55,393 nucleotides of DNA, from assembly GCA_964564035.1 (NCBI GenBank), contig CAZLZN010000006.1:1-55393 (forward strand), in the 5' to 3' direction. The notes below the pieces were generated by a model. The model was given only the letters and a program-made list of their open reading frames with translations. It made no database searches and was not told the origin of the DNA. The DNA comes from an uncultured Gammaproteobacteria bacterium. Its GTDB lineage: Bacteria; Patescibacteriota; Microgenomatia; Levybacterales; UBA12049. The translations under genes were made by a program, and so were the position numbers. Positions 2,913 to 39,932 of the stretch are shown here, piece by piece. The number at the start of each line of letters is the position of its first letter. Position 1 is the stretch's first letter.

Positions 2913-2928
2913 TTTATATTTATAGAAC

Positions 2929-3828: not shown

Positions 3829-3898
3829 ATATTTAAACTCTTCAAATTATATCGTATATGTTTATTTATACGGTTGCCAAGATATATTTGCTTTATAT

Positions 3899-4720
3899 TT
3901 AAGACGCAGTCAATGTGACTCTTGCCGTATAGGTATTTGTATAACTGTTTGCCGGAATTCCCAGCCCAAGCGTCGGCGGGACTGAATATGATCCCAATCC
4001 ATATCCGGCAGTTGCCGTAATTAAATTAACGTTCTCGCTCGTACTGTCGAAGAAATTCAGTGAACCGGGAGTAACGTTTGTATTTATTCCTGAAATAGTC
4101 GTCAGTGAACCCGGAGTAAGACTGAATCTGGTTACATCAATGGTATCTACCCTGATTGTCCATTGGTTGCCTGTGGCATAACCCGTATCCGGGAAATTAA
4201 CCTTTAGACCTCTTGTCCCGACTGCAATATCAGTCCCGCCTGTCGTAGCCACGTCATTTACTGTCTCAAGACCGGTTACATCAAATGTTGCAGTGCCCGG
4301 ATCTCCGCCTGTATCAATAGTAATTGTATAAATCCCGGCAGACGAAGTAGAGTAAGGCGTACTGTTACCAAGTGTTAAAGATTTTGCGCCTGATGTTGTT
4401 GTTGGATTATTATATTTATAAAAATTCGTAGACTGCGCTGTGGCAGACCACCCCACACCTGTTCCTCTCGCATCTGTAACCGTTACTGTGCCCAAGTCTC
4501 CTGTCGAATCCTGATGATTGATTGAAGCCGAAACAGTCGACATATATTCGTCTCCTGTCTGAGCGATAGTCAAAGCTCCGCCCGTAATATCCTGTCTTAC
4601 ATGCGTTTGGGCCGTAGCGTTAGCTTTTGTAATCTCCCTGCTCGAAGAAAATTCATTCAGTACATTTATAAAAGCCATCAGGATTATGACGCATGAAACG
4701 ACAAAAGTCGCCCAGTGCAA
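3899..4720 (-). CDS. WxL-domain-like surface protein (paralog 2); 5' end apparently frameshifted
   Basis: Collinear with paralog 1 (GDLGTVTVTDARGTGVGWSATAQSTNF ... YTARVTLTAS). The ORF starts at TTG 4720. The conserved N-terminal peptide (MLRKAVHHITNTRPQWYKDYH) is encoded upstream from ATG 4799 in another frame. Confidence 0.55.
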   Translation of the reverse strand: MHWATFVVSCVIILMAFINVLNEFSSSREITKANATAQTHVRQDITGGALTIAQTGDEYMSTVSASINHQDSTGDLGTVTVTDARGTGVGWSATAQSTNFYKYNNPTTTSGAKSLTLGNSTPYSTSSAGIYTITIDTGGDPGTATFDVTGLETVNDVATTGGTDIAVGTRGLKVNFPDTGYATGNQWTIRVDTIDVTRFSLTPGSLTTISGINTNVTPGSLNFFDSTSENVNLITATAGYGLGSYSVPPTLGLGIPANSYTNTYTARVTLTAS

Positions 4721-23728: not shown

Positions 23729-26104
23729 TTATCTTGAAAAGAGCTGGCTCTGCGGTACAACTTGTTTTGCTTGAGACTTACTGCTCCAGCTGAGGCGGGC
23801 TTCCGATCCTCCATAGTTCTGATAATATTCTATTCTGATCGCATACTTTCTATTCGCTGTTAAACTTATCTTTCCGTTGTATTCTGTTGCGGGCTGATTG
23901 ATCCATTTATCAATTAACTTTACTCCGTTTACCCAAACGCGTGCTCCGTCATCCGTTCTAAAATAAATAGTATACTGCTGTGAGTATTTAGGAATAATAT
24001 AACCTGTCCACAATACGCTGTATGTAGATGGTTCAATTCCGCTGACAGGCGAGTTGGACCCCCAGTTAAAATTAATAATTGGATCAATTCTGGTAATAGA
24101 TGTACCGGTAAAATTATTATTGTTGTAGTATTTACCCGTCAATCCGTTTGGATTAGGAGTGGGAGTAGGTAGTTTTGTAGGAGTAGGGATACTGGTTGGG
24201 GTGGGGGATGGGGTAATAGTTGGTGTAGGGGTAAAAGTCGGCGATGGTGTCGGAGTATTTGTGGGAGTAGGCGTTGGCGAAGGAGTGCTGGTTGGAGTGG
24301 GATATGGTGTACTTGTGGAGGTTAAACTGGGCGACGGCGTGTCAGTGGGATTAGTGATTACTGCAGGGAATGCGATCCTCAGTAATTCCCATGCCTCCTT
24401 GCGGATTCTAACCACCGATTCGGGATCGGTTTTAAAAGTTTTTACTGCCACATCCGCGCTCTCCGATAACCAAGCGTCAGCACGGCTTTCCCATTCTCCT
24501 GCATATTTTCCCTGCCTCTTCGCCTGTTTTATTCGTTCATAAATCGACACATCTTCAACGCTCTCTCTCCAGGCTTCAATACCCCGCGTTAAAATATATC
24601 CGGCACTGCTAGGAAATACAAGAACAGCGTCATTTAAATTGGAAGCACCCCGATCATCACCGTCAAAATCATTCCAAATATCTCCGTATCCAAAATCTAT
24701 ACCCCACATCCCCATGCCTTGAAGATCATGCTTTATGGCGATCCATCCGGCTCTTCTGAAAAATCTCAACAGCGAAACTTCGTTTCTGGCCCCCTCGCCG
24801 TAATAATTGCTGTAGAACCATAGCGGCTTACCTGTTGATTTAAGAAAGGCTGTTTGATCTTCCAGTCGATACATGGTTTCATGTGGTATCCAAATATCAA
24901 CATAAGGATTAAGTCCCTCAAGAGTCTCAAGAAGCCTGTTACCGGCAGGATTCTCAACTATGAGAGCATTCGGCCGGTATGCTTTTACCTCCTGGGCAAT
25001 TATCCCAATTCCTTCAACATGTTCCAGCTTTGGCTCATCCAGAATAGAGATTATTATTTGCTCGTCTTTCCAGCCTTCTTCATTCAAGCGTGAATAATAT
25101 GCGTCAACGGCGGCTCTGATCTTATTTCTAAAATCTGCCGGATCCGTTTTATAAAGATTAGTTGTGATGGAAAGATCTTTGCTCCACAGGTCAGACCTCG
25201 AGTAAGATAGAAGATTTTTATATACATAAGACTTATTCTGTCCATGATTTGTTATTGACCCGTTTATCGTTGTGTAATAAGACTTATCTAGATCTTCATC
25301 ATATCCGCCATATGTTAGAACTTGTTTATATGGTTTTGTTGGGATGTAGGTAGAAAGCACCTCCGCATTGATATACTGTTGTCTAACTAAAGATCCGTCT
25401 GGATTTGCTACGTCGAGATTAAAAACATAATTACCCTGAGTTGTCTGAGCACTGCCCGGTGAAGTGTTATACGTCTGTAAACGCATCCACAATCTTACCG
25501 GTGTGTTTGGCTTAAGATGAAGTACGGGAAAATCCTTCCAAGCTTCTTCATCTACAAAAGAAGCGGGAAAATTGCCGTTAAAACTATCTATCTGTTCTTT
25601 GGTAAATAGATTAACCAAAGCGGCTTTATTTGCGGAGGTGGTAGAAGCTCTGCTCTCTATTGCCCCCAGAACACGCAAATCTGCTTTGCCGTATTTGAAA
25701 TCCGTCGGGGCCGTAAGCGTCACTCGCACATCTACTTCATTTTCTGAAGTATTCATAATGCCGATAATCTTTTGCTCGACCTCATTTCTCAATACGGGTA
25801 TCGACCATGAAGACTCTTCAATTTCAAGAGTGGTGGGCATTCTGGTTCCGCCATCGGTGAAAATCCATGGATCCTCAGTCCACGTAGTAATACCTTGTTT
25901 AAAATCCGGGCTATTTGGATCAGTATTTAATTGGGCTCTGCCTTTACTAATATTTTGATGTTTATTTATGTTGGAATTTATAAGTGGAATTGTTGCTAAC
26001 AGGCTAAGAGATAGTATAATTCCAAAAAGCGAAAAATATAAAAGTATGGCGGATTGTCTGCTGTTGTTTTTAAATTGACTCAAATAACTAATAAATCTTT
26101 TCAT
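23729..26104 (-). CDS. Secreted putative glycan-active enzyme (DUF4091-like catalytic region, tentative) + Pro/Thr linker + C-terminal PA14 domain
   Basis: N-terminal anchor, about 550-aa globular region, about 65-aa PT-rich linker, then [15 protein letters not shown]...FSVLWTGYI...[17 protein letters not shown]...[20 protein letters not shown] (PA14 pattern). Confidence 0.7.
23762..24125. repeat. 364-bp repeat, copy 1 (identical to 26140..26503)
   Basis: Block-by-block comparison by eye shows no mismatch. It encodes the PA14 core of both genes. Confidence 0.9.
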
Positions 26105-26106
26105 GA

Positions 26107-27708
26107 TTACTTACTCAAGAGTTGCGATTGAGGTATTGTTTGTTTTGCTTGAGACTTACTGCTCCAGCTGAGGCGGGCTTCCGATCCTCCATAGTTCTGA
26201 TAATATTCTATTCTGATCGCATACTTTCTATTCGCTGTTAAACTTATCTTTCCGTTGTATTCTGTTGCGGGCTGATTGATCCATTTATCAATTAACTTTA
26301 CTCCGTTTACCCAAACGCGTGCTCCGTCATCCGTTCTAAAATAAATAGTATACTGCTGTGAGTATTTAGGAATAATATAACCTGTCCACAATACGCTGTA
26401 TGTAGATGGTTCAATTCCGCTGACAGGCGAGTTGGACCCCCAGTTAAAATTAATAATTGGATCAATTCTGGTAATAGATGTACCGGTAAAATTATTATTG
26501 TTGAAATATTGCCCTGTTAATCCGCTCTGAGCCACAGCAGGTGTCGGTGTGTTTGTGGGAGTAGGGGATGGGGGAGTGCTGGTGGGAGTTGGCGTGTTAG
26601 TCGGAGTAGGAGATGGTGTGTTGGTAGGCGTGAGAGACGGAGTGCTGGTTGGAGCTATTGAGGGCGTAATTGTCGGCACAGCGGTCGCTGTAGGCTCAGT
26701 ACTCGGTGAATATACTCTAATATAATCTATCTCCATCTCGGGTGGGAAAACAGTATCCGGCTTTACTTCTCCCGGCCATTTGCTCCCTATTTCCCAAGAA
26801 GCGAGGAAATATAAGGACTTATTTACGTAATTTGGTATCGATTTAACTACTTGTCCATCCAGATACCATTTCATGTCTGCGGGAGTCCATTCGAACGCAT
26901 ATGTATGCCATACGCCCAGCATGCCCCCGGCCGGTTGCATATATGTAAGTCCTGAGTCTGGCGACTCTCCGTGAGCATTAACTGTAGACAATAGTCCTGC
27001 AGAAGGATTATTCCCATCGTAAAGAGTTTCCAGGATATCAATTTCGGGAGGATAAGAGCCGTCTTGTGCCAGGAGCCAAAAAGCCAAGTGCTGTGCGCTT
27101 GAAATTGCGTTTAGTTTAGCGCGTATCTCCCAAAAGCCATATGTTTGTGCATGTGACAGTTCGGATGTGATCATTGATGCCGCCGCAGGCGGGGAGGCGC
27201 CATACCAGTCAAATTGCGGCTGATATGCCGGCGGTATAGGATAAGCTCTCATTTTAAGCGTTCCATTCGAGACTTCATGAAGCGATGGGTTTGGCCATCC
27301 CGCTTCGATAAGCACCTGTTTTATTGTTTTGGCACCCGCAGGTGCGTTTATGCCTTTCCATGTATCATCCATCTTCACGCCGTCATCCAGATTGTCATAG
27401 ATCCTTCTGGTATTCCATCTGCAGAAATAACTAGCCCACTTATTAGTTATGCTATTTCTTCCGCAAGTCGGATCAAGGTCGAGAGATGCTCCGTCAAATT
27501 CATCGCTCCATGATAGAGTATGTCCGGGGGGAGCTGCATGAACGTTTTTTAGCTTGTCTGCATTCTTTATCCGGCTATTTAAAACAGGAAAAGAGATTAA
27601 AGTAACTAAAAATGCCAAAATACTGAAAGCGGAAATTGATATCCAGATCTTTGATATATTATTTTTGTTTTTCGTGCGGCGCTTTAAGGATTTTCTTTTT
27701 TTGACCAT
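26107..27708 (-). CDS. Secreted glycoside hydrolase family 16 + Pro/Thr linker + PA14 domain
   Basis: GH16 catalytic motif PPEIDILE (E-x-D-x-x-E), GFWEIRAKL and [10 protein letters not shown], then the PT linker and the same PA14 domain as the downstream gene. Only 2 nt separate the two genes. Confidence 0.85.
26140..26503. repeat. 364-bp repeat, copy 2
   Basis: Identical to 23762..24125 (offset 2378 nt). Confidence 0.9.
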
Positions 27709-27853: not shown

Positions 27854-28246
27854 CTATTTAAGTTCAACTGTAGCTCCTGCTGCAGTGAGCTTGGTTTTTG
27901 CTTCATCCGCGGTCTTTTTATTGACCTGGGACATAACCTCTTGAGGCGCGGTATCAACCTTGCCTTTAGCTTCAACAAGAGATAGTGTAGGTACTAATTC
28001 GCGAAGAGCCTTGATGACAGCGATCTTATTTGCGCCTGCTGATGCCAGGACGACATTGAAGATAGTCTGTTCTTCTTTGGGTGCGTCTGACGCTCCCGCT
28101 CCTCCCGCTGCCGGTGCCGCCGCGACCATTGTTGCCGCCGCTGATACTCCGAATTTTTCTTCGAGTGCCTTTACCAGATCGGAAAGCTCGAGAACTGTCA
28201 TCTCTTCAATCGCTTTCATTAATTCATCTTTTGTTATTTTTGCCAT
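27854..28246 (-). CDS. rplL: 50S ribosomal protein L7/L12
   Basis: [38 protein letters not shown]..., an Ala/Gly hinge, and C-terminal ...[12 protein letters not shown]. Confidence 0.95.
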
Positions 28247-28378
28247 AATACACCTCCTTTCAGCCGTTGAATTTTAAATTTACAATTTTAAATTTGAAAT
28301 GAATTTTCAATACTTTAAATTTAAATTTTTAAAATTTATATTTGATTGAAAATTTAAAATTTCAAACTGAAAATTTAC

Positions 28379-28915
28379 TTATACTTTTTTCTCCCTAATC
28401 GCGTTAAGAGTCATTACTAAGCTTTGTAAGTTCCAATTCAGTGCCCTATGAAGTCCGGAAATCGGTGCTTTCATCTGTCCCAAAAGTTGTGCCTGTAGAA
28501 CGGGTAGGGGAGGAAGAGTCGCTATTTTCTCTACCTCTTTTTCGGATATTTGCTTTCCCTCAAAAATACCGAATTTTATTTTTGGAAGCGTTAATTCTTT
28601 TATTATATTAGTCAATTCTTTCAGAGGCGCGACAATATCGTTATAAATAAAGAGAGTCGCGGTCGGGTCTGTAAATTTATCTTTATCCGCTTCAGGATCT
28701 ATCTTGTCGCCAAGAGCTCTTTTGACCAGTGTGTTTTTAGTAGTTACATATTCTGCCTCAAGCTTTTTAGCGGCTCTTTTGATCCTCTCAAGCTGAAGAT
28801 GAGTAAGTCCCTGATAGTTGGTAAAAATAATCGCTTTGGACTTAGTGACCTTCTCGGAAAGCTCGTTTACCAGATCTATTTTTTTCTGTTTATTTGTACT
28901 GATTTTGCTGCTCAT
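28379..28915 (-). CDS. rplJ: 50S ribosomal protein L10
   Basis: KIDLVNELSEKVTKSKAIIFTNYQGLTHLQLERIKRAAKK...TKNTLVKRAL is the typical L10 N-terminal domain. It sits directly upstream of rplL. Confidence 0.9.
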   Translation of the reverse strand: MSSKISTNKQKKIDLVNELSEKVTKSKAIIFTNYQGLTHLQLERIKRAAKKLEAEYVTTKNTLVKRALGDKIDPEADKDKFTDPTATLFIYNDIVAPLKELTNIIKELTLPKIKFGIFEGKQISEKEVEKIATLPPLPVLQAQLLGQMKAPISGLHRALNWNLQSLVMTLNAIREKKV

Positions 28916-28930
28916 ATTAAAAATTTTCTC

Positions 28931-28953
28931 AAAAAAAACACTCCTGAGGAGTG
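28931..28953 (-). terminator. Hairpin + U8 tract 15 nt upstream of the rplJ start (candidate leader attenuator)
   Basis: Minus strand: cactcctcaggagtg (6-bp stem, 3-nt loop) immediately followed by tttttttt, then 15 nt, then the ATG at 28915. Confidence 0.5.
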
Positions 28954-29074
28954 CTGTATATAATTAAAATTTAAAGTATTGAGAACAAACTTTTTATTTT
29001 CAACTTTAAACTTTTAACTATTTCTGCTCCTCGGCAGGTCTTAGTTTAGCGCCTGCTGTCTCTGGACTTCAAGT

Positions 29075-29103
29075 ATTATAACAGTTATATAAAATTTTGT
29101 AAA
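29075..29103 (-). promoter_or_regulatory. Sigma70-like promoter candidate for the rplJL leader
   Basis: Minus strand TTTACA (29103-29098), 17-nt spacer, TATAAT (29080-29075), just downstream of the stop of 29111..31324. Confidence 0.35.
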
Positions 29104-29110
29104 TATTGCT

Positions 29111-31324
29111 TTATTGGCCGGTTACGTATATTGAATGTGCTCCTTTCCAAAGCGTGCCTGAATTTATAGTAGACGGCCAGGTGCCAAATGTACGCGATTT
29201 ATAAACGGCACTTTTTGCCGAAACATCATTATATTTCATATTGTTAAGATTGCTTTTGCGGCCGTTTGTGTTATAAAGCAGCCAATAAGAAGTGTTAGCA
29301 GATAAAACTGCGTTAATAGATATTGTATTCCATGAGTTCGCCTGAAGTGTGCCGTTCGAGCTTTTTGAGACTAATGTCCCGGGTTTGCCGCTGCTATTGT
29401 TGGTGTATATCGCCACTTGGTACTGACTATATGGAGCTGAGTCTATTTGACCTACGTAAACAGAGATTGAAGAAACAGTAAGCGACTGGGATCCAACGCT
29501 AACTTTTAATCCGGACATTGAATTTGAATTGCTATTATCAGTTTTGGATCCAATTGTTGTATTACCTAGCTTAACTGCGCTTATCGGTGTTGGGGTGGGG
29601 GACAGTAAGGGCGTTGGAGTACTTGTGGTGGTTGGTGTTGGAGTATAAGTTGGCGGTGGAGGCGTTAATGTCGGCGTCAAGGTTGGGGTTAGTGTCGTAG
29701 TAACGGTTGGTGTCGGATTAGCTCCCAAGGCTGCTGCTTGAAGCTCAAAAGCAGAAGTAAGTGTCTGCCATAGCGGTTTTGTTGTGTACGGCAGCATATC
29801 TTCATAATAATACCACCAGAAATATCCGCCAACGTAATCTCTAACCGGAATACTTAAGCCATAATAATAATTAATCATTGATTCAGCAGGCGCGGTATTG
29901 CTCCCTACAGGATTGGGAAAACCAATTTCACCAAAGCCTAATTTGGAGTTTGGATATATTGCCTTAAGGTTTATAAAAAAATTGGCTAAAACTGACGCGC
30001 TTGGACGGATATTATTACATTGCGATTCGTAATAGCTGACAAAAACATAGTCTAATCCGTTACGCATGTCTGCAGGAACATATTGTTCGGAAAAAGCAAT
30101 CGGGTCCAGTTCGGACGGACCGTTGCCGCATCCGTCATTATACCAGAGCGTTAAAGCACTTTTTTTGTTCGCTGTTTTTACTTGTTGATATGCATCATAT
30201 ATTTTTTCACTAACTGATGAGTAAGGGCCGGTCCAGTTGCCGTTTACCTCATTGCCGATTTCCCAAATGTCTACTTTATCTCCCAATAAAGATAAATAGC
30301 TTTGAGTACGATTGTGATATTGCTGTAAGCTGGAATTTGCCAATCCTTCTGAGTCAAGAATTTCCCCCATGATGTAGCTGACCGGCTGTATTTGATTTAC
30401 CGCATTTAAATAATAACTGGCAGAAACTCCGTCGTCAAAAACAATCCTTGTAGTGGGCATGTGTGACAAGTGAATAGAGGAATCAACAATTCTGGATATA
30501 TTGGCGACGTCATCAACTGTAACCCCATAAATTATATTGGGAAGATCACGCATGCCTGTAAGCGGGGTAGGGGATATTGATGGGGTTGATGTGGTCTGAG
30601 ACACCATTACGTCATCAAAATATACCAATGAATCTTCATTATATAAACCTATCGAACCGCTTGTGTAAGGCGTTTCTGTATCGGTAAAAGTAGTCAATAA
30701 ATTACCATTTACATAAATTGTAATTTGATTTGATTGCTGTGCTACTCTGACGCTATTCCATTGGCCAATTGGAAATGCGGGTGTAGTTCCGGTTGCGAGA
30801 AATCTTTGTGCACCGGGATACGCGGGATCCGCTTTGCCCAATTCCCAGCCGTTAGGCTTGAGTGCAAGATAATAGAAATGTGTATTATCGGTATAATGCC
30901 AAAGAGCCCATGCGGTTTCCCATGGGTTAGGCACCGGGGTGCGCAGTTGCTGCGCTGTTTTCATTTTCAATGAAAAATCTATATCGCTGAATACCGCTAT
31001 GGACGTAACCAGTGATGCATGAGTTTCGGATTCGGTAGTCGACACCATAGGCTGCTGGTATAAAACTTTAGATGCGTCCGAAGCAATGCCAACACTGCCA
31101 AATCCTGTAAAATTTACTCCCCAATTGCTATTCGTACTTCCTTCAGGCCATGATCCAATTGAGTAAGATTCAAAGTCGTCGCTGAAAGCTGTTCCCGCTG
31201 CTGAACCGATTAAGGATTGTCTTTGATTCACACCGATTAGCAACAATGGTATGAGGACAACCACTAATACCAATGAAACAAGAAGCTTCTTATAACCTTT
31301 CTTTTTTCTCCCTTTTTTTAACAC
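29111..31324 (-). CDS. Secreted multidomain protein: LamG/DUF1080-like lectin fold + clan GH-A-like (beta/alpha)8 hydrolase + Pro/Thr linker + C-terminal beta-sandwich
   Basis: N-terminal anchor. FSDDFESYS...HFYYLALKPNGWELGK...WNSVRVAQQSNQITIYVNG is concanavalin-like. DIWEIGNEVNGNW is the acid/base N-E motif of clan GH-A, and GFGEIGFP is a candidate nucleophile. A PT linker precedes an Asn/Ser-rich C-terminal domain. Confidence 0.65.
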   Translation of the reverse strand: MLKKGRKKKGYKKLLVSLVLVVVLIPLLLIGVNQRQSLIGSAAGTAFSDDFESYSIGSWPEGSTNSNWGVNFTGFGSVGIASDASKVLYQQPMVSTTESETHASLVTSIAVFSDIDFSLKMKTAQQLRTPVPNPWETAWALWHYTDNTHFYYLALKPNGWELGKADPAYPGAQRFLATGTTPAFPIGQWNSVRVAQQSNQITIYVNGNLLTTFTDTETPYTSGSIGLYNEDSLVYFDDVMVSQTTSTPSISPTPLTGMRDLPNIIYGVTVDDVANISRIVDSSIHLSHMPTTRIVFDDGVSASYYLNAVNQIQPVSYIMGEILDSEGLANSSLQQYHNRTQSYLSLLGDKVDIWEIGNEVNGNWTGPYSSVSEKIYDAYQQVKTANKKSALTLWYNDGCGNGPSELDPIAFSEQYVPADMRNGLDYVFVSYYESQCNNIRPSASVLANFFINLKAIYPNSKLGFGEIGFPNPVGSNTAPAESMINYYYGLSIPVRDYVGGYFWWYYYEDMLPYTTKPLWQTLTSAFELQAAALGANPTPTVTTTLTPTLTPTLTPPPPTYTPTPTTTSTPTPLLSPTPTPISAVKLGNTTIGSKTDNSNSNSMSGLKVSVGSQSLTVSSISVYVGQIDSAPYSQYQVAIYTNNSSGKPGTLVSKSSNGTLQANSWNTISINAVLSANTSYWLLYNTNGRKSNLNNMKYNDVSAKSAVYKSRTFGTWPSTINSGTLWKGAHSIYVTGQ

Positions 31325-31431
31325 ATGAATATAATAACATTTCGATTAAAAAACCGTCAATAAATATTTATCTTTAAATAATTTTATTGGTTGTATTTCG
31401 TAATGAAGAGACTTAGTAGTATTCTGCTCTT

Positions 31432-32127
31432 TTACACAGCATGTTTTTTAATTCCGCTTATCCAGTGGTGTGCCCGTCTGTTGATCACCAGATATTCGCG
31501 AGTAAGCTGTTCGTTTTCCTGTTTTGCTTGAGCGGTTGTAAAGACATCAGTCGCTATTCGAAGAAAAGGATTGAACATGGTAGCCGCCTGCACAATAAAA
31601 GGTAATTGATCTTCGCCTCTGTCGTGCTTTTTTACTTCGCTAATATATTTCTTATAATTCCCGCCGGTATAATCCGACCGCCTTAATTCTCCGATCTTGA
31701 GCAGATTATCCAATAATTTTAGCTCTGCCGATATCTGATCCGGGAACTCGTCATTTTCATGTTTTTTAAATGATCCCTCTACAATGCCTCTCAGATGATC
31801 GACCATCATATTTTTCGAGAATTCTCCTTTGCCCCATAGCCAGGGCATACCTTTACTCCTTATCATTGAATAGGTTTCTTCCAATGCTTCGTTAAGTACG
31901 ATTAGGTTCAATTTTTTTAGAAGTATTGGAGGATTATACTTTTTTGAAATATCACTTTCTTCGTTGGCAATTAGAATTAGGCCTACCGGGTCGCCTGTGA
32001 TAAATTTTTCGTACTCTACAGAGTTTTCTTGTCTGTACTTAAGCGATAACCATACAGCATTAGAGTCAAGCCTCAGTTGCTCTTGAAGATTATTAATAAG
32101 TAAAGGTTCGGCTTTAGCTTCTTTCAT
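31432..32127 (-). CDS. Hypothetical protein (231 aa)
   Basis: ORF with no recognisable motifs. It lies inside the ribosomal-protein cluster. Confidence 0.6.
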   Translation of the reverse strand: MKEAKAEPLLINNLQEQLRLDSNAVWLSLKYRQENSVEYEKFITGDPVGLILIANEESDISKKYNPPILLKKLNLIVLNEALEETYSMIRSKGMPWLWGKGEFSKNMMVDHLRGIVEGSFKKHENDEFPDQISAELKLLDNLLKIGELRRSDYTGGNYKKYISEVKKHDRGEDQLPFIVQAATMFNPFLRIATDVFTTAQAKQENEQLTREYLVINRRAHHWISGIKKHAV

Positions 32128-32156
32128 TTATTAAATTTACGCAATTTAACCAAAGC

Positions 32157-33008
32157 CTACGCTAATCCTGAGGTTTCTAGCTTGATACCGGGGGACATAG
32201 TGGACTTGAGAGTTATATTTTTTACATTTTTCATCTGTATCGCGCCAATCGCTGCTTTGATATTTTCCTCCAGCTTTTGGTCTCCGAACGAAACCTTGCC
32301 GACAGCCATATGTAAAATAGGGAACTTTGCCTCAGTCTTGAAATTTACCTGCCCGCCCTGGAATTTTTTCGCGATCTCGGCGGGTTTAGGTGTTACAGTC
32401 CCGTTTTTCGGATTTGGCATGAGGCCGCGTGGTCCCAGGAACTTAGCAATTCGTGCGAGTTTAGGCATAGAATCCGGAGTCGCGATCAGGACGTCAAAAT
32501 AAATATCTCCGCCCTCGACTTTTTTGACAATTTCTTCTACATGCTTGGAGTCTTCTGATTGATTAGCTATTTCGATCTTTATCTCCTTACCGGTTCCGTG
32601 TGGGAGTGTCACATTGCCTGATACATTTTTTTCAAGCGTATTTATATGAAGTTCCACGGTCTCATCAAATTTTGCTATTTTGATTTTCGGAAGAATTCCC
32701 AGTGCTTCTTTAAGAGCATACTTTTTATTTTTATCTACAATTTGTAAGGCCGCCAAATATTTATCAGAGCGGGCTTTTTTATTTGCTGATTTAAATTTAG
32801 AAGGTTTAGCTTTTGCTTTCTCAACCGCTTTCTCTATGTTCTCCGGTTTATCCGCGGTTTCTTTTGCAGGGCTTTCTTGATCGGCCTGCGCCGGCTCTTT
32901 CACTTCTTTTTCAGACAATTTTTTTGCCTCGGCCTTTTTAAAAGCCGCTTTTTTATCTTCTTTTTCTTTCTTCTCGTCTCCGAGTGTTCTGACTCTTATT
33001 TTTCCCAT
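32157..33008 (-). CDS. rplA: 50S ribosomal protein L1 with Lys/Glu/Ala-rich N-terminal extension of about 75 aa
   Basis: The core (YALKEALGILPKI...VTLPHGTGKE...DVLIATPDSMPKLARIAKFLGPRGLMPNPKNGTVT...) aligns by eye with E. coli L1. It is preceded by MGKIRVRTLGDEKKEKEDKKAAFKKAEAKK..., with no alternative internal start. Confidence 0.9.
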   Translation of the reverse strand: MGKIRVRTLGDEKKEKEDKKAAFKKAEAKKLSEKEVKEPAQADQESPAKETADKPENIEKAVEKAKAKPSKFKSANKKARSDKYLAALQIVDKNKKYALKEALGILPKIKIAKFDETVELHINTLEKNVSGNVTLPHGTGKEIKIEIANQSEDSKHVEEIVKKVEGGDIYFDVLIATPDSMPKLARIAKFLGPRGLMPNPKNGTVTPKPAEIAKKFQGGQVNFKTEAKFPILHMAVGKVSFGDQKLEENIKAAIGAIQMKNVKNITLKSTMSPGIKLETSGLA

Positions 33009-33055
33009 AATTTATTTGTCTTCAAGTCTAAAGTCTCCATGTCATCAAGTCATTA

Positions 33056-33087
33056 CTTTATAACTTTACGACTTTATAACTTTATGA
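33056..33087. repeat. Four tandem CTTTAYRA octamers between rplK and rplA
   Basis: ctttataa ctttacga ctttataa ctttatga. Preceded by the 7-8-nt periodic words caagtc taaagtc tccatgtc atcaagtc. Confidence 0.9.
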
Positions 33088-33088
33088 C

Positions 33089-33511
33089 TTATTTAACCTC
33101 CACTCCCATGCTTCTTGCTGTGCCCGCGACGATTCTCGCGCCCATAGCAATATCATCTGTATTCAAGTCTTCAAGTTTGTCTTTGGCAATCTGTTCGGCT
33201 TGAGCCATAGACAGAATACCTGCTTTTTCTTTACCCGGCTTTTGTGAGCCTTTTTCTTTGCTGATAGCTTTTTTGATCATCTCGGCAACCGGAGGCTTTT
33301 TAGTTATAAAACTAAATGTCCTGTCAACATAAACCGATATAACAACCGGGAGCACATTGCCTTTCATTTTCTCGGTTCGGGCATTGAATTCTTTCACAAA
33401 CTCCATAATAGGAAGTCCGTGCTGACCCAGAGCAGGTCCGACCGGCGGAGCTGGAGTTGCTTCTCCGGCTTTTATATTTAATTTTATAAGTGTTTTAATT
33501 TTCTTCGCCAT
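33089..33511 (-). CDS. rplK: 50S ribosomal protein L11
   Basis: IKLNIKAGEATPAPPVGPALGQHGLPIMEFVKEFN... is the canonical L11 N-terminal domain. Confidence 0.95.
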   Translation of the reverse strand: MAKKIKTLIKLNIKAGEATPAPPVGPALGQHGLPIMEFVKEFNARTEKMKGNVLPVVISVYVDRTFSFITKKPPVAEMIKKAISKEKGSQKPGKEKAGILSMAQAEQIAKDKLEDLNTDDIAMGARIVAGTARSMGVEVK

Positions 33512-34855: not shown

Positions 34856-35402
34856 AATGCGTGATTTTGGATGCGATAAACGGAACTGCGGTGATTAGTA
34901 AAAAAATTCCCGGATATCCCGCCGCGAAATCCATCTTCGCCAGATTTATATTTGAATTTATAATATATAACAAAAAGTTTCCGTTCAAAAGTGCGAAAAC
35001 TGTCGCGATAAATGCTGTCAAATAAAATTTTTTCCCCGCCAGCATCTCTGTTAATAAACCGCTTACAAATCCAATTCCAATTGCTTTGATAATAACAAAA
35101 GGCAAAATTCCGGCCGGGGGCATTTGAGTAATCGAAAAGCTTACGAGAGGTGCCAGTAATCCGACTAAAAATCCGCAGCGCGAGCCGTATGTCAAACCTG
35201 CAAGTAAACTGAATAAGTATAGGGGTAAAAAAATCTGCCCGGCAATTCCGAACAAATGAAGCACAAATGGCAGTGTAATGCTTGCCATCAAGAGAAGTGA
35301 AATAATTAAGTACAATCTTAACTCCAAAAATCTGGGATAAGTAAGCTTTATCTCGTCTGCAATTACATTTTCTGACGCCGCAGTAGGGGATTCCTGGTCC
35401 AT
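34806..35402 (-). CDS. Polytopic membrane protein (ECF-transporter S-component-like, tentative)
   Basis: Five to six hydrophobic helices. LPLYLFSLLAGLTYGSRCGFLVGLLAPLVSF is reminiscent of S components. The 3' end overlaps the PRTase start by 50 nt. Confidence 0.45.
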   Translation of the reverse strand: MDQESPTAASENVIADEIKLTYPRFLELRLYLIISLLLMASITLPFVLHLFGIAGQIFLPLYLFSLLAGLTYGSRCGFLVGLLAPLVSFSITQMPPAGILPFVIIKAIGIGFVSGLLTEMLAGKKFYLTAFIATVFALLNGNFLLYIINSNINLAKMDFAAGYPGIFLLITAVPFIASKITHYERKIIRRYHRQTKTI

Positions 35403-35499
35403 ACTTATAAACTACAATATCTGCCTAAAATTGTAAAGGCTATTGTATTGAATTACAAAATAGTACTATTATATATCTATATACTTCTTTTGATTTAAC

Positions 35500-37416
35500 A
35501 TGAACAAACCGATATCAGAAGTGAAGCATTCCGATAAAAAACACTCCTGCGTTCACCACGATCATGAATGTTACTATTCGGGTACAAATAAGTCTGTTTT
35601 TTACATACTGTTGGGCGTTCTTTCTCTCGTCTGGTTTATGGTACGCACCGGAACCAAGCCTTCCCGCTTTTTATATCCATGCCAGCAAACCGCGCTGGTT
35701 AATTCGGTTGCGTTTGTGCCCGGACTTTATCCGTTATTGCTCTTGAGCGGAAAAACAGCCGCCAAATTAAACAAGACGTGGACTCTGGGAATTCTGGTCT
35801 TACTGCTGATCTTTACTCTTATAGCCGCTGTGGGCAGGGAATATACCAATCAGACATCCTGGGCGCAGATGGTTCCTAATCAGCCGATGGGTACGCCGGC
35901 CGGTGTCAGCCCCGGCAGGGTAGTTTGGGCTTATGACGAGAACGCGACTACGGGCAATTTTACCCAATATTGGACACAGCTTGACCAGACCAAAGTAGAT
36001 AACATGATCAAAACAGCTCTGATAGCATTATCGGGTGAGAAAACTCCCGGCGCGGCAGTCGCCAGGCTTTTTCCGTGTGGAAATAATTGCTCAGGCAAAA
36101 AGATTGCCATCAAAGTAAATTTCAACAACTCGGGCCGCTCCGACGCCGCGATGGATGCTAACTCTCAGACTGTCAAATCGTTATTAAAATATTTAACCAC
36201 CTCAGAGCCCGGGGTATTTCAGGCTTTCAACCAGCAGGACATTTCTATTTATGACGCGTCCAGAAAAATCCGGGATTATTTCGCGTCGCAGGTAACCGGT
36301 TCATACCCCAATGTTAAGCTGTTTAGCGAAAGCGGTATCGTTTCAAGCGGCGACAATTATGTATTTGACTCAAAATATTGTCAGCCGTCCGGCACTCACA
36401 AAGTCCCGGCAATTGTAAAAGAAGCCGATTATCTGATAAATATGCCTCTCCTGAAAGCGCATACCAATGCAGGAGTAACTCTAACGTTTAAAAATTATTT
36501 CGGAAGCGCGACCGATCCGGTTAGCTTCCACCCATGTATTGACCGGGATATGAAATTTCTGGTAGGACTTTATACGGCTGGAATTCGCAATGCGGACAAT
36601 ACATCTACAACCTTGGCTCAAAAAACAAAACTCATCATAGGAGACGCACTATACGGCAATTTCCATGGCCAAAACAACCCGCCTGACAAGTGGTCATTTT
36701 TCAAAAATGACAGCCCGAACAGTCTTTTTGTTTCTCAGGACCCCGTCGCTGTCGACTCTGTCATGTTCGACCTGATCATGCAGGAGCTGGGAAAATTCAA
36801 TGACGCCAAACAGCAATATCTGGAAGAAGCAGCACAGAGATCAGGCGGAAGTCTCGGTGTCCACGAGCATCCCGGGCTGGCTCCGGGATGTGCGGACTTG
36901 AAAAATCTGCATTGCTGGAAATATACAAAGCTTGAATTCGTCAAATGTGATATATCCGGAAACAAACTGGATCCTTTATGTGCAGGTACCCAAGCAGATC
37001 CCACTCAAGCGCCTCAGCCGACAGCAGTAATCCCGACGTTTGTCTGCGCCGGTGGAGCCAACTGCCCTCCATCCGTTACACCGACCGTACCGGCGTCCGG
37101 CATTACCATAACACAGCCTGCAAGCACATCTCCGATCCCATCAATTTCAACCGCTAATCCAACCCCTACATTGCCGATCTCAAATATTAGCCCGACCACT
37201 GCAAATGGTTCTCCCGCTCCCACTACGCAATCAAATAATCCCACAATTGGTAGCGTCTCTCCGACAGCCGGAGCAATTTTGACACCGGGAAGCGGGCAGA
37301 GACCGACAGCTAGCCCGGGTCGTCCCGGCGGGCAAAACACAGGACTCCTCATCCAGCTATTGGAAATCATAAAGCAGTTAATCGAGCTCCTGACAAGGCT
37401 CTTGAGGTTTCAATAA
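35500..37416 (+). CDS. Membrane-anchored DUF362-domain protein with Pro/Thr-rich linker and shared C-terminal tail module
   Basis: KIAIKVNFNN and DYLINMPLLKAHTNAGVTLTFKNYFGS are DUF362 hallmarks as I recall them. The C-terminal 138 aa are shared with 37454..38788. Confidence 0.7.
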   Translation: MNKPISEVKHSDKKHSCVHHDHECYYSGTNKSVFYILLGVLSLVWFMVRTGTKPSRFLYPCQQTALVNSVAFVPGLYPLLLLSGKTAAKLNKTWTLGILVLLLIFTLIAAVGREYTNQTSWAQMVPNQPMGTPAGVSPGRVVWAYDENATTGNFTQYWTQLDQTKVDNMIKTALIALSGEKTPGAAVARLFPCGNNCSGKKIAIKVNFNNSGRSDAAMDANSQTVKSLLKYLTTSEPGVFQAFNQQDISIYDASRKIRDYFASQVTGSYPNVKLFSESGIVSSGDNYVFDSKYCQPSGTHKVPAIVKEADYLINMPLLKAHTNAGVTLTFKNYFGSATDPVSFHPCIDRDMKFLVGLYTAGIRNADNTSTTLAQKTKLIIGDALYGNFHGQNNPPDKWSFFKNDSPNSLFVSQDPVAVDSVMFDLIMQELGKFNDAKQQYLEEAAQRSGGSLGVHEHPGLAPGCADLKNLHCWKYTKLEFVKCDISGNKLDPLCAGTQADPTQAPQPTAVIPTFVCAGGANCPPSVTPTVPASGITITQPASTSPIPSISTANPTPTLPISNISPTTANGSPAPTTQSNNPTIGSVSPTAGAILTPGSGQRPTASPGRPGGQNTGLLIQLLEIIKQLIELLTRLLRFQ

Positions 37417-37453
37417 GAATCATTAAAATAGCTTTGGAATATCCTTCATATAA

Positions 37454-38788
37454 ATGAAAATAAATAAAAAAAGCCCATCAGCTCGTATTAAAACACAAAA
37501 CGGAGACATGCTTGTCTGGATTGCATTTACGTCGTTTACAATAATTGTTTTTTTAATATTCTTTATAATTCTGCCTTTAACCAATACCAAAAAGAATTTA
37601 AAAGACGTAAAAAATGCCCAAGCAGCCCCCTCAGGATATGCGCTGTCATGGGGCGATGAATTTGACGCTATTACTCTTGATACATCATGCAGTGGCTCTA
37701 ATACATGGGCTGATTATTTTTGTAAATTCAACACCAGGAGGCTTGACGGCAACTCCGACGACGGCATTAAAATGCACAGCGACTGGAAAGGAGCAAACCC
37801 TTCCTCAGGCGCCAAAACAATACGGGAAGTGCTTACCGAAGCCGGATGGCCTTCTCCTTCTCTTCATGATGCATCAAACGGAACGCTTAAGCTTCGGGCA
37901 TATCCTATTCCTTCCTTATATCAAAATCAGTTCAATTGGAATGGAGCTACCAATCCCTCTGCAGCGTCTATGATTACAAGCGAGAAATCGCACTCACAAA
38001 CTTATGGTTACTGGGAAGTACGCGCCAAATTAAACACTGAGCCTAAAAATAAGCATTTTTCAATATGGCTCATGCCTCAGGACGGCTCATGGCCTCCGGA
38101 AATAGATCTCCTGGAAACAGTTATTGATATAAATAACAAAAGCGCCGGTATACTATCATCGGCAAACTCACACGGAGAAACACCCGATGTGCCAATAACA
38201 TTTTTCAAACCTGCAGGGGGTATGCTTAATGTTTGGCATACATACGGATTTGAATGGACACCAACAACCATGATATGGACTGTTGACGGACAAGTAGTTA
38301 GATCGCATCCTAACTATGTCAACAAGCCGATGTATATACTTGCCTCTTGGGAAGTAGGAGGTAGCTGGTCAGGAAACACGGATCAGAACACAAACTGGCC
38401 GGGCGAGATGGAGATTGATTATGTGAGAGTTTATACGCAGGGCGCTGGTCCCACATCCACGCAAGCACCTCAGCCGACAACAGTAATCCCGACATTCGTC
38501 TGCGCCGGAGGATCAAACTGTTCACCGTCAGTTACACCGACTATGCCGGCATCGGGAGTAACCATAACTCAACCCGTATATACATCTCCCGCTCCCACAG
38601 CTCAGACAGTGAGTCCTACCGGCGGTAGCGTCTCTCCGACAGCCGGAGCAATTTTGACACCCGGAAATCAGATTGGGCCGACTGTCAGGCCCGGACAGCC
38701 GGGAAGTCAAAACACAGGACTACTCATCCAGCTATTGGAAATCATAAAGCAGTTAATCGAGCTCCTGACAAGATTATTAAAATTCTGA
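37454..38788 (+). CDS. Secreted glycoside hydrolase family 16 (paralog of 26107..27708) with shared C-terminal tail module instead of PA14
   Basis: WPPEIDLLE (E-x-D-x-x-E), GYWEVRAKL and WHTYGFEWTP. The C-terminal 110 aa parallel the tail of the DUF362 protein. Confidence 0.85.
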   Translation: MKINKKSPSARIKTQNGDMLVWIAFTSFTIIVFLIFFIILPLTNTKKNLKDVKNAQAAPSGYALSWGDEFDAITLDTSCSGSNTWADYFCKFNTRRLDGNSDDGIKMHSDWKGANPSSGAKTIREVLTEAGWPSPSLHDASNGTLKLRAYPIPSLYQNQFNWNGATNPSAASMITSEKSHSQTYGYWEVRAKLNTEPKNKHFSIWLMPQDGSWPPEIDLLETVIDINNKSAGILSSANSHGETPDVPITFFKPAGGMLNVWHTYGFEWTPTTMIWTVDGQVVRSHPNYVNKPMYILASWEVGGSWSGNTDQNTNWPGEMEIDYVRVYTQGAGPTSTQAPQPTTVIPTFVCAGGSNCSPSVTPTMPASGVTITQPVYTSPAPTAQTVSPTGGSVSPTAGAILTPGNQIGPTVRPGQPGSQNTGLLIQLLEIIKQLIELLTRLLKF

Positions 38789-38893
38789 TATTTTATTGCG
38801 GATTGACCTTGCCTTTGACGTTGTCTTATATCTTCTAATTCTCCCTTAAATATTTATAACCTAAATAGAAAATGGTTCATGCGGCATTGACGG

Positions 38894-39307
38894 TTAGAAC
38901 TTGCCCGGATAAGTATAATGCTTGAAATTACCGGCTCTGACATGCTTCTTAAATATCCTCGTCTGGAATTCGGTATGCTCATCTCTGCCGACTACTATAC
39001 TTGATCTATTCAAAAGTTTACCACCTTCATGGTCGGTTATTACAGGAATAGTGGAAAATTTTCTCAGCAGAGGATCATAAGCGTTAGCAGATAGCTCCTG
39101 TATGTTTCCCGGTTTTATATCAATCATCGTGTCATTTTCCTCGAAACTTACATTGGCAGTGTAAAAATTGCCATCAAGGCTCACAACTGCAAAAGCAATC
39201 TCCGGACGCTGAGGAAAGCTCCATTTATAAATTTTTATTAACTTCGATTTGATTTCATTCTCAATTTGCTCTTTAGACTTCTCTTGTCCTCTCTCTATCT
39301 CTCTCAT
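38894..39307 (-). CDS. Hypothetical protein (137 aa)
   Basis: ORF only. Confidence 0.5.
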   Translation of the reverse strand: MREIERGQEKSKEQIENEIKSKLIKIYKWSFPQRPEIAFAVVSLDGNFYTANVSFEENDTMIDIKPGNIQELSANAYDPLLRKFSTIPVITDHEGGKLLNRSSIVVGRDEHTEFQTRIFKKHVRAGNFKHYTYPGKF

Positions 39308-39407: not shown

Positions 39408-39932
39408 ATGAAAAACTCGATCGCATCCAAATTTGCATACCTCGCCGCTTTAGCTTTCATTGCCGCTATTATCACATCGTCAGTTTTGCTTCCGCCTGAA
39501 ACATATACAGGCCAGCCGCCGCTGTCTGTCATATTATCGGTAAGCTTTTTTATTATTTTCCATCTCGCTATGCTCCCGGTGATATCTGCGCTCCGTGCGC
39601 CCGACTGGGCAAAAACCTCGGGGATTATCTGGGTCGCAATCGACAATATGCTCGAGATGATGTCGTTTTTCGGAGTAGCAGGAGAACTTATTATACCTAT
39701 GAGGTGGGGGATTCATCTGGCGACGGCAACCTGGCTTATCGGAGTAGGACTCGAGCACCGGGGATTTTTCCGAATATTTAGTTTTATTGTCGCCGCCCTC
39801 CTGATCGCGGTCACACTTGCCGGGCCTTTTCTTGAGAGATCGGCCGTTGCACAGACTCTCGGTGCCGCCGGAGTACCATTCATAATCTGGATCTTCACCG
39901 CGGGCTTCAAATTGAACAAAGGCTACAAATAA
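39408..39932 (+). CDS. Hypothetical polytopic membrane protein (174 aa)
   Basis: Several clear hydrophobic helices. Preferred over the overlapping minus ORF 39380..39646. Confidence 0.5.
   Translation: MKNSIASKFAYLAALAFIAAIITSSVLLPPETYTGQPPLSVILSVSFFIIFHLAMLPVISALRAPDWAKTSGIIWVAIDNMLEMMSFFGVAGELIIPMRWGIHLATATWLIGVGLEHRGFFRIFSFIVAALLIAVTLAGPFLERSAVAQTLGAAGVPFIIWIFTAGFKLNKGYK

Follow-up and report, generated by a model that had tools for sequence, protein, structure and literature searches.

A stalk-and-helix C-terminal module on adjacent exported DUF362 and GH16 proteins of a Microgenomates-like bacterium

We analyzed a 55,393-nt stretch of DNA (contig CAZLZN010000006.1 of GenBank assembly GCA_964564035.1; hereafter the window), the gene content of which is like that of the Candidate Phyla Radiation (CPR)/Microgenomates. 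The subject of this report is a C-terminal tail found on two neighboring gene products, a DUF362 protein and a GH16 glucanase-like protein. A preliminary description of the window had claimed that these two unrelated exported proteins end in the same module, that the DNA of its terminal helix is nearly identical in both genes, and that a sister GH16 carries a PA14 domain in the same position. In a BLASTP comparison the C-termini alone align between the two proteins, with 88 of 136 residues identical (65%, E=2e-47) and one 27-residue gap, and the motifs given in that description are exact in sequence and in position. The tail is a protein-coding C-terminal module made up of a Cys block, a disordered stalk and a terminal helix. 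The two tailed genes, their parts and the sister GH16 are laid out as follows.

35500..37416, plus strand: DUF362 gene, encoding a 638-aa membrane-anchored protein with a predicted LarA-clan fold and tail copy 1 (open reading frame (ORF); Pfam DUF362, E=1.5e-13; AlphaFold2 (AF2); Foldseek).
35587..35865, plus strand: N-terminal membrane region of the DUF362 protein, about three helices (AF2; Hessa insertion free energy (dG) of the third transmembrane (TM) helix, -3.0; invariant inter-helix motif).
37003..37119, plus strand: Cys block of tail copy 1, TQAPQPTAVIPTFVCAGGANCPPSVTPTVPASGITITQP (C-x5-C) (synonymous and nonsynonymous divergence (dS/dN) against copy 2; conserved in the orthologs P0125-P0127; AF2 predicted local distance difference test (pLDDT) <50).
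37120..37341, plus strand: disordered Pro/Thr/Ser-rich linker of tail copy 1, with conversion patch A at 37249-37290 (AF2 pLDDT 32-40).
37342..37413, plus strand: terminal three-heptad amphipathic helix of tail copy 1, GLLIQLLEIIKQLIELLTRLLRFQ, with conversion patch B at 37333-37395 (AF2 helix 614-635).
37454..38788, plus strand: GH16 gene, encoding a 444-aa glucanase-like protein with tail copy 2 (ORF; Pfam GH16, E=3.6e-14; AF2).
37499-37582, plus strand: N-terminal TM or signal-anchor helix of the GH16 protein (AF2 helix 16-43; Hessa dG -4.3).
38459..38575, plus strand: Cys block of tail copy 2, TQAPQPTTVIPTFVCAGGSNCSPSVTPTMPASGVTITQP (AF2 pLDDT 42-49).
38576..38716, plus strand: Pro/Thr-rich linker of tail copy 2, with conversion patch A at 38624-38665 (unitig depth; dN/dS).
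38717..38785, plus strand: terminal amphipathic helix of tail copy 2, GLLIQLLEIIKQLIELLTRLLKF, with conversion patch B at 38708-38770 (AF2 helix 422-443).
26107..27708, minus strand: sister GH16 paralog, 56% identical in the catalytic part, with a Pro/Thr linker and then PA14 (residues 394-528, E=3.5e-29).

The GH16 gene starts 37 bp after the DUF362 gene. Six-frame tblastn and hidden Markov model (HMM) scans of the whole 55 kb found two tail copies and no third. Both Cys blocks read TQAPQPT[AT]VIPTFVCAGG[AS]NC[PS]PSVTPT[VM]PASG[IV]TITQP, and the pattern V[VI]PTF[VS]C[AI]GG(G).NC.PS holds across the carriers; it is followed by a disordered Pro/Thr/Ser stalk of 45-75 residues and a terminal helix of 23-24 residues. 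The DNA of copy 1 and copy 2 is 80% identical overall, and the identity is unevenly spread. The GSVSPTAGAILTPG block (also called the GSVS block), at 37249-37290 and 38624-38665, is identical at 41 of 42 nt, and the helix-core DNA (37333-37395 and 38708-38770) at 62 of 63 nt, which confirms the near-identity of the helix DNA. The helix, GLLIQLLEIIKQLIELLTRLL[RK]F, lies at 37342-37413 and 38717-38785. In the DUF362 copy an extra Q precedes the stop, and the linker contains a 27-codon stretch without a counterpart in copy 2. In the sister GH16, PA14 does stand in the position of the tail.

The two copies were compared segment by segment by Nei-Gojobori counting. The Cys block has a dS of 1.03 and a dN of 0.069 (dN/dS of about 0.07), and dN in the variable linker parts is 0.34-0.54. 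The last five helix codons (RLL[RK]F) carry seven nucleotide differences, with five synonymous substitutions. In the two near-identical patches dS is 0.08 (GSVS block) and 0.07 (helix core), compared with about 1 elsewhere. This pattern points to an old duplication with purifying selection on both copies and recent homogenization of two patches, indicating that gene conversion acted on both, the helix core included. Two diverged sludge strain variants show helix changes that are all synonymous (6 of 6 and 8 of 8 codons, among the differences listed, 7 and 8 of 11). Since relatives vary at synonymous sites, a constraint at the DNA level is not the cause of the patch identity. An RNA element was considered and rejected on the same variation and on an Rfam search of the window, which returned five tRNAs only, none of them at the patches.

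The patches can also be seen in sequencing reads. In eight runs, Logan unitigs split exactly at the shared patches, and the 38-mer and 50-mer unitigs have about twice the flanking depth. The shared unitigs span 37249-37286 and 37348-37397, with the copy 2 counterpart at 38624-38661, each at about 2x; the patch depth was 49.9 vs about 23 in run X1 and 48.5/49.2 vs 22.7-24.9 in run X10. The doubled depth means that there are exactly two copies of the patch DNA per genome, a count that covers near-identical DNA and that diverged copies escape.

With the full DUF362 protein as query, three orthologs that cover the tail were found.

P0125, 80% identity, locus L002: terminal helix GLLAILLSLIQVILELFKSLFKF.
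P0126, 79% identity, locus L001: terminal helix GLIAILLQIIQAILELFKSLFKF.
P0127, 46% identity, locus L003: terminal helix GLLAAILNFILLILEFLKSLLGIK.

P0125 and P0126 have the Cys block as PTFVCAGG.NC and P0127 has the version PTFSCIGGGVNC. The Pro/Thr linker of the three differs in sequence and length; the helix keeps the same register and the invariant Glu and is much more hydrophobic. One Gly is invariant directly before the helix (GG in P0125). These orthologs, together with locus L001, which lacks GH16, show the tail to be ancestral on the DUF362 enzyme, a membrane-anchored protein predicted to be extracytoplasmic, within one narrow, Daviesbacteria-like group of Microgenomates. The body of the window DUF362 protein is 92-93% identical to P0125 and P0126 and its helix 42%; in nucleotides the values are about 80% in the body and 37-57% over linker and helix. 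The helix DNA of the window DUF362 gene matches that of the neighboring GH16 at 61 of 69 nt vs 28 of 69 nt for L002. These segment identities show concerted evolution of the two tails, and the second copy, on the adjacent GH16, stems from an old local duplication in the lineage of the window. The sharing by two unrelated proteins, as first described, is thus real, and it goes back to local duplication of adjacent genes kept alike by conversion rather than to independent recruitment.

More distant DUF362 homologs do not have the tail. At the tail position, P0130 and P0131 carry dockerin-like repeats (Dockerin_1, 14.4 and 22.8 bits; cut-off 22.9), and P0129, from Candidatus Daviesbacteria, has a PQQ propeller at its C-terminus. 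Extracytoplasmic DUF362 proteins of Microgenomates swap C-terminal modules, with dockerin-like repeats, a PQQ beta-propeller or the stalk-helix tail in this place. Among the close GH16 homologs P0003-P0012 the tail was not found; they carry other C-terminal modules there.

The presence of GH16 itself varies. Locus L001 is syntenic with the window (L11, NusG, a phosphoribosyltransferase, a membrane protein, DUF362 with the tail, Bac_transf) and has no GH16. Downstream of the tailed genes, the window and L001 share two conserved unannotated neighbors, a 137-aa protein (38894-39307, minus strand) and a 174-aa polytopic membrane protein (39408-39932, plus strand). A Pfam search had no match to either; by position only, both are candidates for partners of the tail. 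In L002 a GH16 ortholog directly follows DUF362, and the contig ends with "...VRVYSEGQEATP" where the tail would begin. An X2 contig of the L002 type extends at least 158 nt beyond that end. A 1236-nt contig from X7 covers a DUF362 helix end (ELLSRLLRF) and then a GH16 that is 81% identical; it breaks off within the Cys block, where the graph branches. Because the X7 contig reaches into the Cys block and the X2 contig extends past the L002 end, the tail is likely to be present on GH16 orthologs, whose contigs end at it or inside it. A 638-nt contig from X7/X18 was taken up as a possible GH16 tail of a relative and rejected because of its DUF362-type upstream junction: it holds a DUF362-type body end, a window-type tail ending in RLLKF and a stop, and then the 3' flank that follows the window GH16. 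In this further relative a DUF362 tail thus leads into the 3' flank of the window GH16, so GH16 presence is polymorphic among close relatives. The two tails (37003-37416 and 38459-38788) are direct repeats flanking GH16, which makes recombination between them a plausible route of GH16 loss or gain.

Further carriers were sought with an HMM and a heuristic over 702 stop-terminated ORFs, taken from about 130 kb that comprised the window and ten loci. Of the six carriers the heuristic picked out five, and it picked out no other ORF; the DUF362 protein of L002 was under the Pro/Thr/Ser cut-off and was caught by the helix HMM. One carrier was new.

L003:3283-3750, minus strand: partial gene of a Cys-rich protein unrelated to DUF362 or GH16 (HMM and heuristic scan).

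This gene lies 1.4 kb from that of P0127 and its N-terminal part runs off the contig. The protein ends in "...TPTNTATATPTKGSNNNGDLIKFLLDLLKSIEDLFAGLFK" and a stop; here a Pro/Thr stalk leads, through a stretch rich in Asn and closed by Gly (SNNNG), to a three-heptad amphipathic helix, DLIKFLLDLLKSIEDLFAGLFK. Its ending IEDLFAGLFK resembles the ILELFKSLFKF of P0125 and P0126. The helix match is weak (E of about 1 with an HMM built without it), and with the full-tail HMM the match has E=1.8e-5, to which the linker contributes most; the case for this third protein as a putative carrier of the linker and helix module is architectural and contextual. The preliminary description had held that its idea would fail if the tail occurred only in the two neighboring genes. 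The tail is found on DUF362 orthologs down to 46% identity, and the linker and helix on a third, unrelated protein, so that objection falls away.

The terminal helix of the window proteins consists of three exact heptads, LLIQLLE, IIKQLIE and LLTRLL[RK]. Within each heptad, positions 1, 2, 5 and 6 are taken by Leu, Ile or Phe without exception, and position 7 by a polar residue. All five DUF362/GH16 helices share this register ("hh..hhp"), and the pattern recurs in the helix of the third protein. An acidic residue is conserved at one helix position, Glu in the five DUF362/GH16 copies and Asp in the third protein. The five helices have K/R near the C-terminus and a net charge of +1, and four of the five end in [KR]F. 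The polar residues of the window-type helix are 2 Glu, 1 Lys, 1-2 Arg and 2 Gln, with Glu-Lys/Arg pairs at i/i+3-4. On the Fauchere-Pliska scale the window helices have a hydrophobic moment of 0.56-0.59 and a mean hydrophobicity of 0.82-0.86; over all helices compared the ranges are 0.42-0.60 (at 100-105 degrees) and 0.82-1.00. The best 19-mer of the window helix has a Hessa dG of +8.3 kcal/mol vs -4.3 for the N-terminal TM helix of GH16. By these moment and Hessa values the window helix is strongly amphipathic and no classical TM segment. The ortholog helices have 19-mer dG values of +1.4 to +4.6 and consist of 70-80% Leu/Ile/Phe/Ala, with up to six of seven hydrophobic positions per heptad and very few charges. 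In P0127 the insertion energy is -0.6 for the 17-mer and +1.4 for the 19-mer, borderline values for a C-terminal TM anchor, and the second heptad is FILLILE, which looks implausible in a water-exposed coiled coil.

Models of both carriers were built with AF2 and homolog alignments. The DUF362 model has helices at 30-52, 60-90 and 94-122 and a confident domain at 130-497; in the GH16 model, residues 16-43 form a TM helix and residues 60-330 a GH16 fold of high confidence. The pLDDT of the catalytic domains is mostly >90. The tail, 90-115 residues in both models, has a pLDDT of 28-49, Cys block included, and the terminal helix has about 70-83 in GH16 (422-443) and about 61-68 in DUF362 (614-635). 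In Foldseek, the DUF362 domain matched LarA-like racemases (E down to 1e-5). The modeled domain is a remote LarA-like fold, in agreement with its Pfam clan (PMC11770544). With about three membrane helices at the N-terminus, the catalytic domain of the DUF362 protein is predicted to be extracytoplasmic. An inter-helix motif (W45, P54, R56, Y59, P60, C61, Q62) is invariant in 28 homologs, as is the conserved N-terminal membrane motif of this widespread family of exported proteins, RTGTKPSR.LYPCQQ. In GH16, a NAQA↓AP motif (37454-37630) sits 12 residues past the N-terminal hydrophobic helix, and by eye AQA↓AP matches the AXA↓AP signal-peptidase-type sites of P0004, P0005, P0007 and P0009, which have short classical signal peptides. 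Candidate cleavage at this site bears on whether the C-terminal helix would be the sole anchor of GH16 or not. Two known signals were considered for the tail and rejected. A C-terminal secretion signal of the type I secretion system is ruled out by the N-terminal Sec-type TM or signal segments of both carriers. A lipobox (consensus L-[ASTVI]-[GAS]-C) is ruled out for FVCAGG by its wrong position, the lack of a preceding signal peptide and the misfit of T-F-V at -3 to -1.

The distribution of the tail was searched more widely. An exhaustive phmmer search of 1.84 billion representatives at 50% identity returned the query's own protein and four repeat or low-complexity false positives only; it also missed the tail-bearing P0125-P0127, so its negatives are soft. 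Four back-translated pattern scans, from the 2-tail and 5-tail alignments, of GTDB representative genomes and JGI metagenome contigs gave no confirmed match, in collections separate from the Logan assemblies that supplied all relatives and that fragment at the tail repeat. With the 109-aa tail as query, a word-indexed search over 5.8 billion proteins gave no match and did not return the window's own protein either, and is hence uninformative. Pfam and NCBIfam had no match to the window tails, the ortholog tails or the helices alone even at E<=10 (five DUF362/GH16 tails scanned), and a profile search of PDB sequences gave two chance matches only (E of about 0.5). It is a fair statement that no wider family is detectable, and as far as can be seen the module does not extend beyond one narrow clade, Microgenomates/Daviesbacteria-like, that is common in activated sludge; the sludge runs X1-X20 contain the organism of the window. 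That the tail is no known sorting signal or domain, as had been suggested, is supported by the Pfam, NCBIfam and PDB sequence searches. The further proposal of a portable sorting, anchoring or oligomerization tag holds in part: the tail is a conserved, selected and undescribed unit, it has no wide family, and sorting has less support than either of the other two functions. Anchoring or oligomerization fit the tail better.

Our preferred reading, held tentatively, is that the tail is a lineage-specific stalk-helix module whose helix tethers the C-terminus of an exported enzyme to the outer leaflet of the cell's own cytoplasmic membrane. The stalk would serve as a flexible tether, and the helix would sink its hydrophobic face of about 260 degrees into the outer leaflet; the C-terminal end of the enzyme would thereby be kept at the cell surface. 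Ortholog helices such as that of P0127 may insert deeper, in a near-transmembrane state, and the Cys block may serve recognition or form a small hinge stapled by a disulfide. The helix appears too hydrophobic to exist freely in water, so it would be expected to bury its apolar face in a membrane. Membrane insertion is favored because of the Leu/Ile/Phe/Ala content of the ortholog helices (70-80%), their near-TM energies and their Lys/Arg ends (mostly with Phe), properties that would suit a water-soluble bundle poorly. A binding or anchoring role also fits the position, which is taken by PA14 in the sister GH16 and by dockerin-like modules elsewhere. There is a precedent in the exported PBP5, which sits on the outer face of the inner membrane via a C-terminal 18-residue amphipathic helix that is required for function (PMC2909392).

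Several points weigh against this membrane tether. Both carriers already have N-terminal TM helices in the AF2 models, so the need for a second membrane anchor is not obvious. The window-type helix is markedly more polar (dG +8.3) and resembles a soluble bundle-forming helix equally well. For binding to anionic bacterial membranes a conserved acidic residue is unusual, and so is the net negative charge on the helix of the third protein. That the two helices are identical within a genome is explained no less well by co-assembly. Expression cannot be brought in: the runs X10, X11, X13 and X15, labeled as metatranscriptomic RNA-Seq, have flat depth over 35300-39000 (genes, intergenic regions and flanks alike, on contigs of 74-210 kb), which makes them DNA-like libraries that are unusable as expression evidence.

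Co-assembly leads to the rival that survives best, an oligomerization tag, which we consider rather unlikely. The helix would form a Type-2 coiled coil (a, d, e and g hydrophobic) and bundle the stalks into homo-oligomers or DUF362-GH16 hetero-oligomers, clustering the enzymes on the surface. The register hh..hhp is a cyclic permutation of hpphhph, a repeat that leads to helical barrels or bundles ranging from pentamers to nonamers (PMC8503928). The window-type helix has Glu, Lys and Arg at exposed positions in i/i+3-4 pairs, and conversion keeps the helices of the two neighbors identical while the helix diverges between genomes, as a self-recognizing interface would; conversion between adjacent repeats, however, can be neutral. 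The helix has only three heptads, and bulky Leu/Ile occupy e and g instead of the small residues of known barrels. The ortholog helices, with up to six of seven hydrophobic positions per heptad and few charges, are more membrane-like than soluble.

A bolder reading combines these elements and is improbable on the present evidence: the tail would be a clade-specific portable surface-display tag whose helices co-assemble or dock on a common membrane partner, building multi-enzyme surface complexes. If it were true, the tag would be a minimal one-helix functional analog of the cohesin-dockerin pair, and within-genome concerted evolution would keep the tagged proteins compatible while the "code" drifts between lineages.

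A cleavable sorting signal is quite doubtful. Here the helix would be a weak stop-transfer or recognition segment that is removed by a peptidase or transpeptidase, with the stalk or the Cys block joined to the wall or a lipid. The order of stalk, hydrophobic helix and terminal K/R does resemble C-terminal sorting signals, a Gly (GG in P0125) is invariant before the helix, the Cys block with its low dN/dS (0.07) could serve recognition or attachment, and a sortase is encoded on L009, a related Daviesbacteria contig. An LPXTG-like motif, however, is absent from all six tails, and there is no PEP, PGF or GlyGly-type motif; the five DUF362/GH16 tails match no Pfam or NCBIfam model, although NCBIfam covers curated LPXTG, PEP-CTERM, GlyGly-CTERM and PGF-CTERM models. 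The sole weak LPXTG-model match, EF0750_LPXTG (14 bits vs a cut-off of 47), falls in the Pro/Thr region. A uniformly hydrophobic, membrane-arresting segment of the LPXTG type is not seen, since charges lie inside the helix, and with a dG of +8.3 a helix of the window type would not stop in the membrane. For the PEP, GG or PGF signature before a TM helix, no NCBIfam model matched at E<=10 and a single Gly alone is invariant at that place. The C-terminal domain of the type IX secretion system, a folded beta-sandwich of about 70-100 residues in diderm, Bacteroidota-type secretion, had no Pfam or NCBIfam match either, and the AF2 tail is disorder plus one helix, not a beta-sandwich. Known signals are carried by many proteins of a genome, whereas the tail occurs twice in 55 kb and the patch DNA exactly twice per genome. 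No sortase, rhomboid or exosortase-like gene was recognizable among the annotated ORFs of the 55-kb window or beside the orthologs (L001-L003), and the co-occurring processing enzyme that had been envisaged was thus not found in the window.

Docking is equally doubtful. In this case the helix would bind a specific partner, on the cell's own surface or on the host cell of a presumably episymbiotic bacterium, as an analog of dockerin-cohesin. Distant DUF362 homologs carry dockerin-like repeats at exactly this position (P0131 at 22.8 bits is just under the cut-off of 22.9), the sister GH16 has PA14, and the conserved polytopic membrane protein (39408-39932) is nearby in the window and in L001. 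That neighbor, however, is kept with or without GH16, no partner was identified, and Dockerin_1 had no match on the tails; the helix is poorly conserved between lineages (38-42% identity), which would demand co-evolution of the partner.

That the tail is a functionless by-product, a neutral low-complexity extension copied by local duplication, is very improbable, and the signs of selection largely refute it. In its favor, the tail is restricted to one clade, is for the most part without order in the AF2 models and was not found in the large database searches; against it, the Cys block has a dN/dS of about 0.07 at a dS of about 1, the listed strain helix differences are all synonymous, the tail is kept on an ortholog at 46% identity, and the register and the position of the acidic residue are conserved across six helices.

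Other features of the window concern the surroundings of the sister GH16 and a further surface system. The ribosomal protein genes rplK-rplA and rplJ-rplL (27854-33511, minus strand) are split by two genes.

29111-31324, minus strand: 737-aa exported protein, LamG/3-keto-disaccharide-hydrolase-like, with a Pro/Thr linker.
31432-32127, minus strand: unannotated 231-aa ORF.

L12 is directly followed by the GH16-PA14 gene (26107-27708) and by a 791-aa PA14 protein (23729-26104); the relative L010 also has the order L10-L12-GH16. A cluster of surface proteins with a WxL domain and a WxL-interacting domain (WxLIP_PGBD) is located at 1833-4720 (minus strand). The WxL system is best known from Firmicutes, and here it is present in a CPR-like genome.

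Microgenomates and other CPR/Patescibacteria have not been brought into culture; their genomes are tiny, they rely on other cells, and a large part of their exported proteins has no annotation. To our knowledge, how they display hydrolases and adhesins on the surface is largely unknown. The tail, with a peptide of 24 residues in a module of 110 residues, offers a tractable handle on surface tethering in Microgenomates. It is also a clean natural case of concerted evolution, with patchwise conversion of a protein-targeting element in two functionally unrelated neighbor genes. The practical impact is modest because the module appears confined to a narrow lineage.

The closest known counterparts are the membrane anchors of the E. 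coli enzymes PBP5/DacA, PBP6 and DacD, and those of the PBP4 type. As in these, an amphipathic helix of 18-24 residues stands at the extreme C-terminus of an exported enzyme (AF2 422-443 and 614-635; moment 0.42-0.60), there is no upstream motif and, on the preferred reading, no cleavage, and the calculated moment and hydrophobicity are within the lipid-binding range. The tail differs from the PBP5 type in that there is no homology, that a Pro/Thr stalk of 45-75 residues and a Cys block precede the helix, and that the carriers have N-terminal TM helices. Its helix has a broader hydrophobic face (4-6 of 7 positions) and a conserved acidic residue, and its membrane binding is predicted from sequence. 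Type-2 coiled coils (hpphhph; a, d, e and g) share with the tail the register LLIQLLE IIKQLIE LLTRLLR over three heptads (PMC8503928) and, for the window-type helix, the exposed Glu/Lys/Arg. Natural and designed barrels usually have small e/g residues and at least four heptads, and the ortholog helices are too hydrophobic for a soluble bundle. The tripartite signals LPXTG/sortase, PEP-CTERM/exosortase, GlyGly-CTERM/rhombosortase and PGF-CTERM/archaeosortase are likewise C-terminal, with a Pro/Thr-rich spacer and a hydrophobic helix ending in Lys/Arg; the tail differs from them by the lack of a signature motif, a model match and a nearby enzyme, by its few carriers and by its amphipathic helix. 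Dockerin and PA14 modules on glycoside hydrolases follow the same logic of position and Pro/Thr linker and are borne by homologs of both carriers, but dockerin (a Ca-binding duplicated repeat) and PA14 (a beta-barrel lectin) are folded domains of 60-150 residues, whereas the tail is a single helix. We regard the tail as an undescribed orphan module and not a mere two-gene curiosity; its most likely role, that of an amphipathic-helix tether, is itself a known solution.

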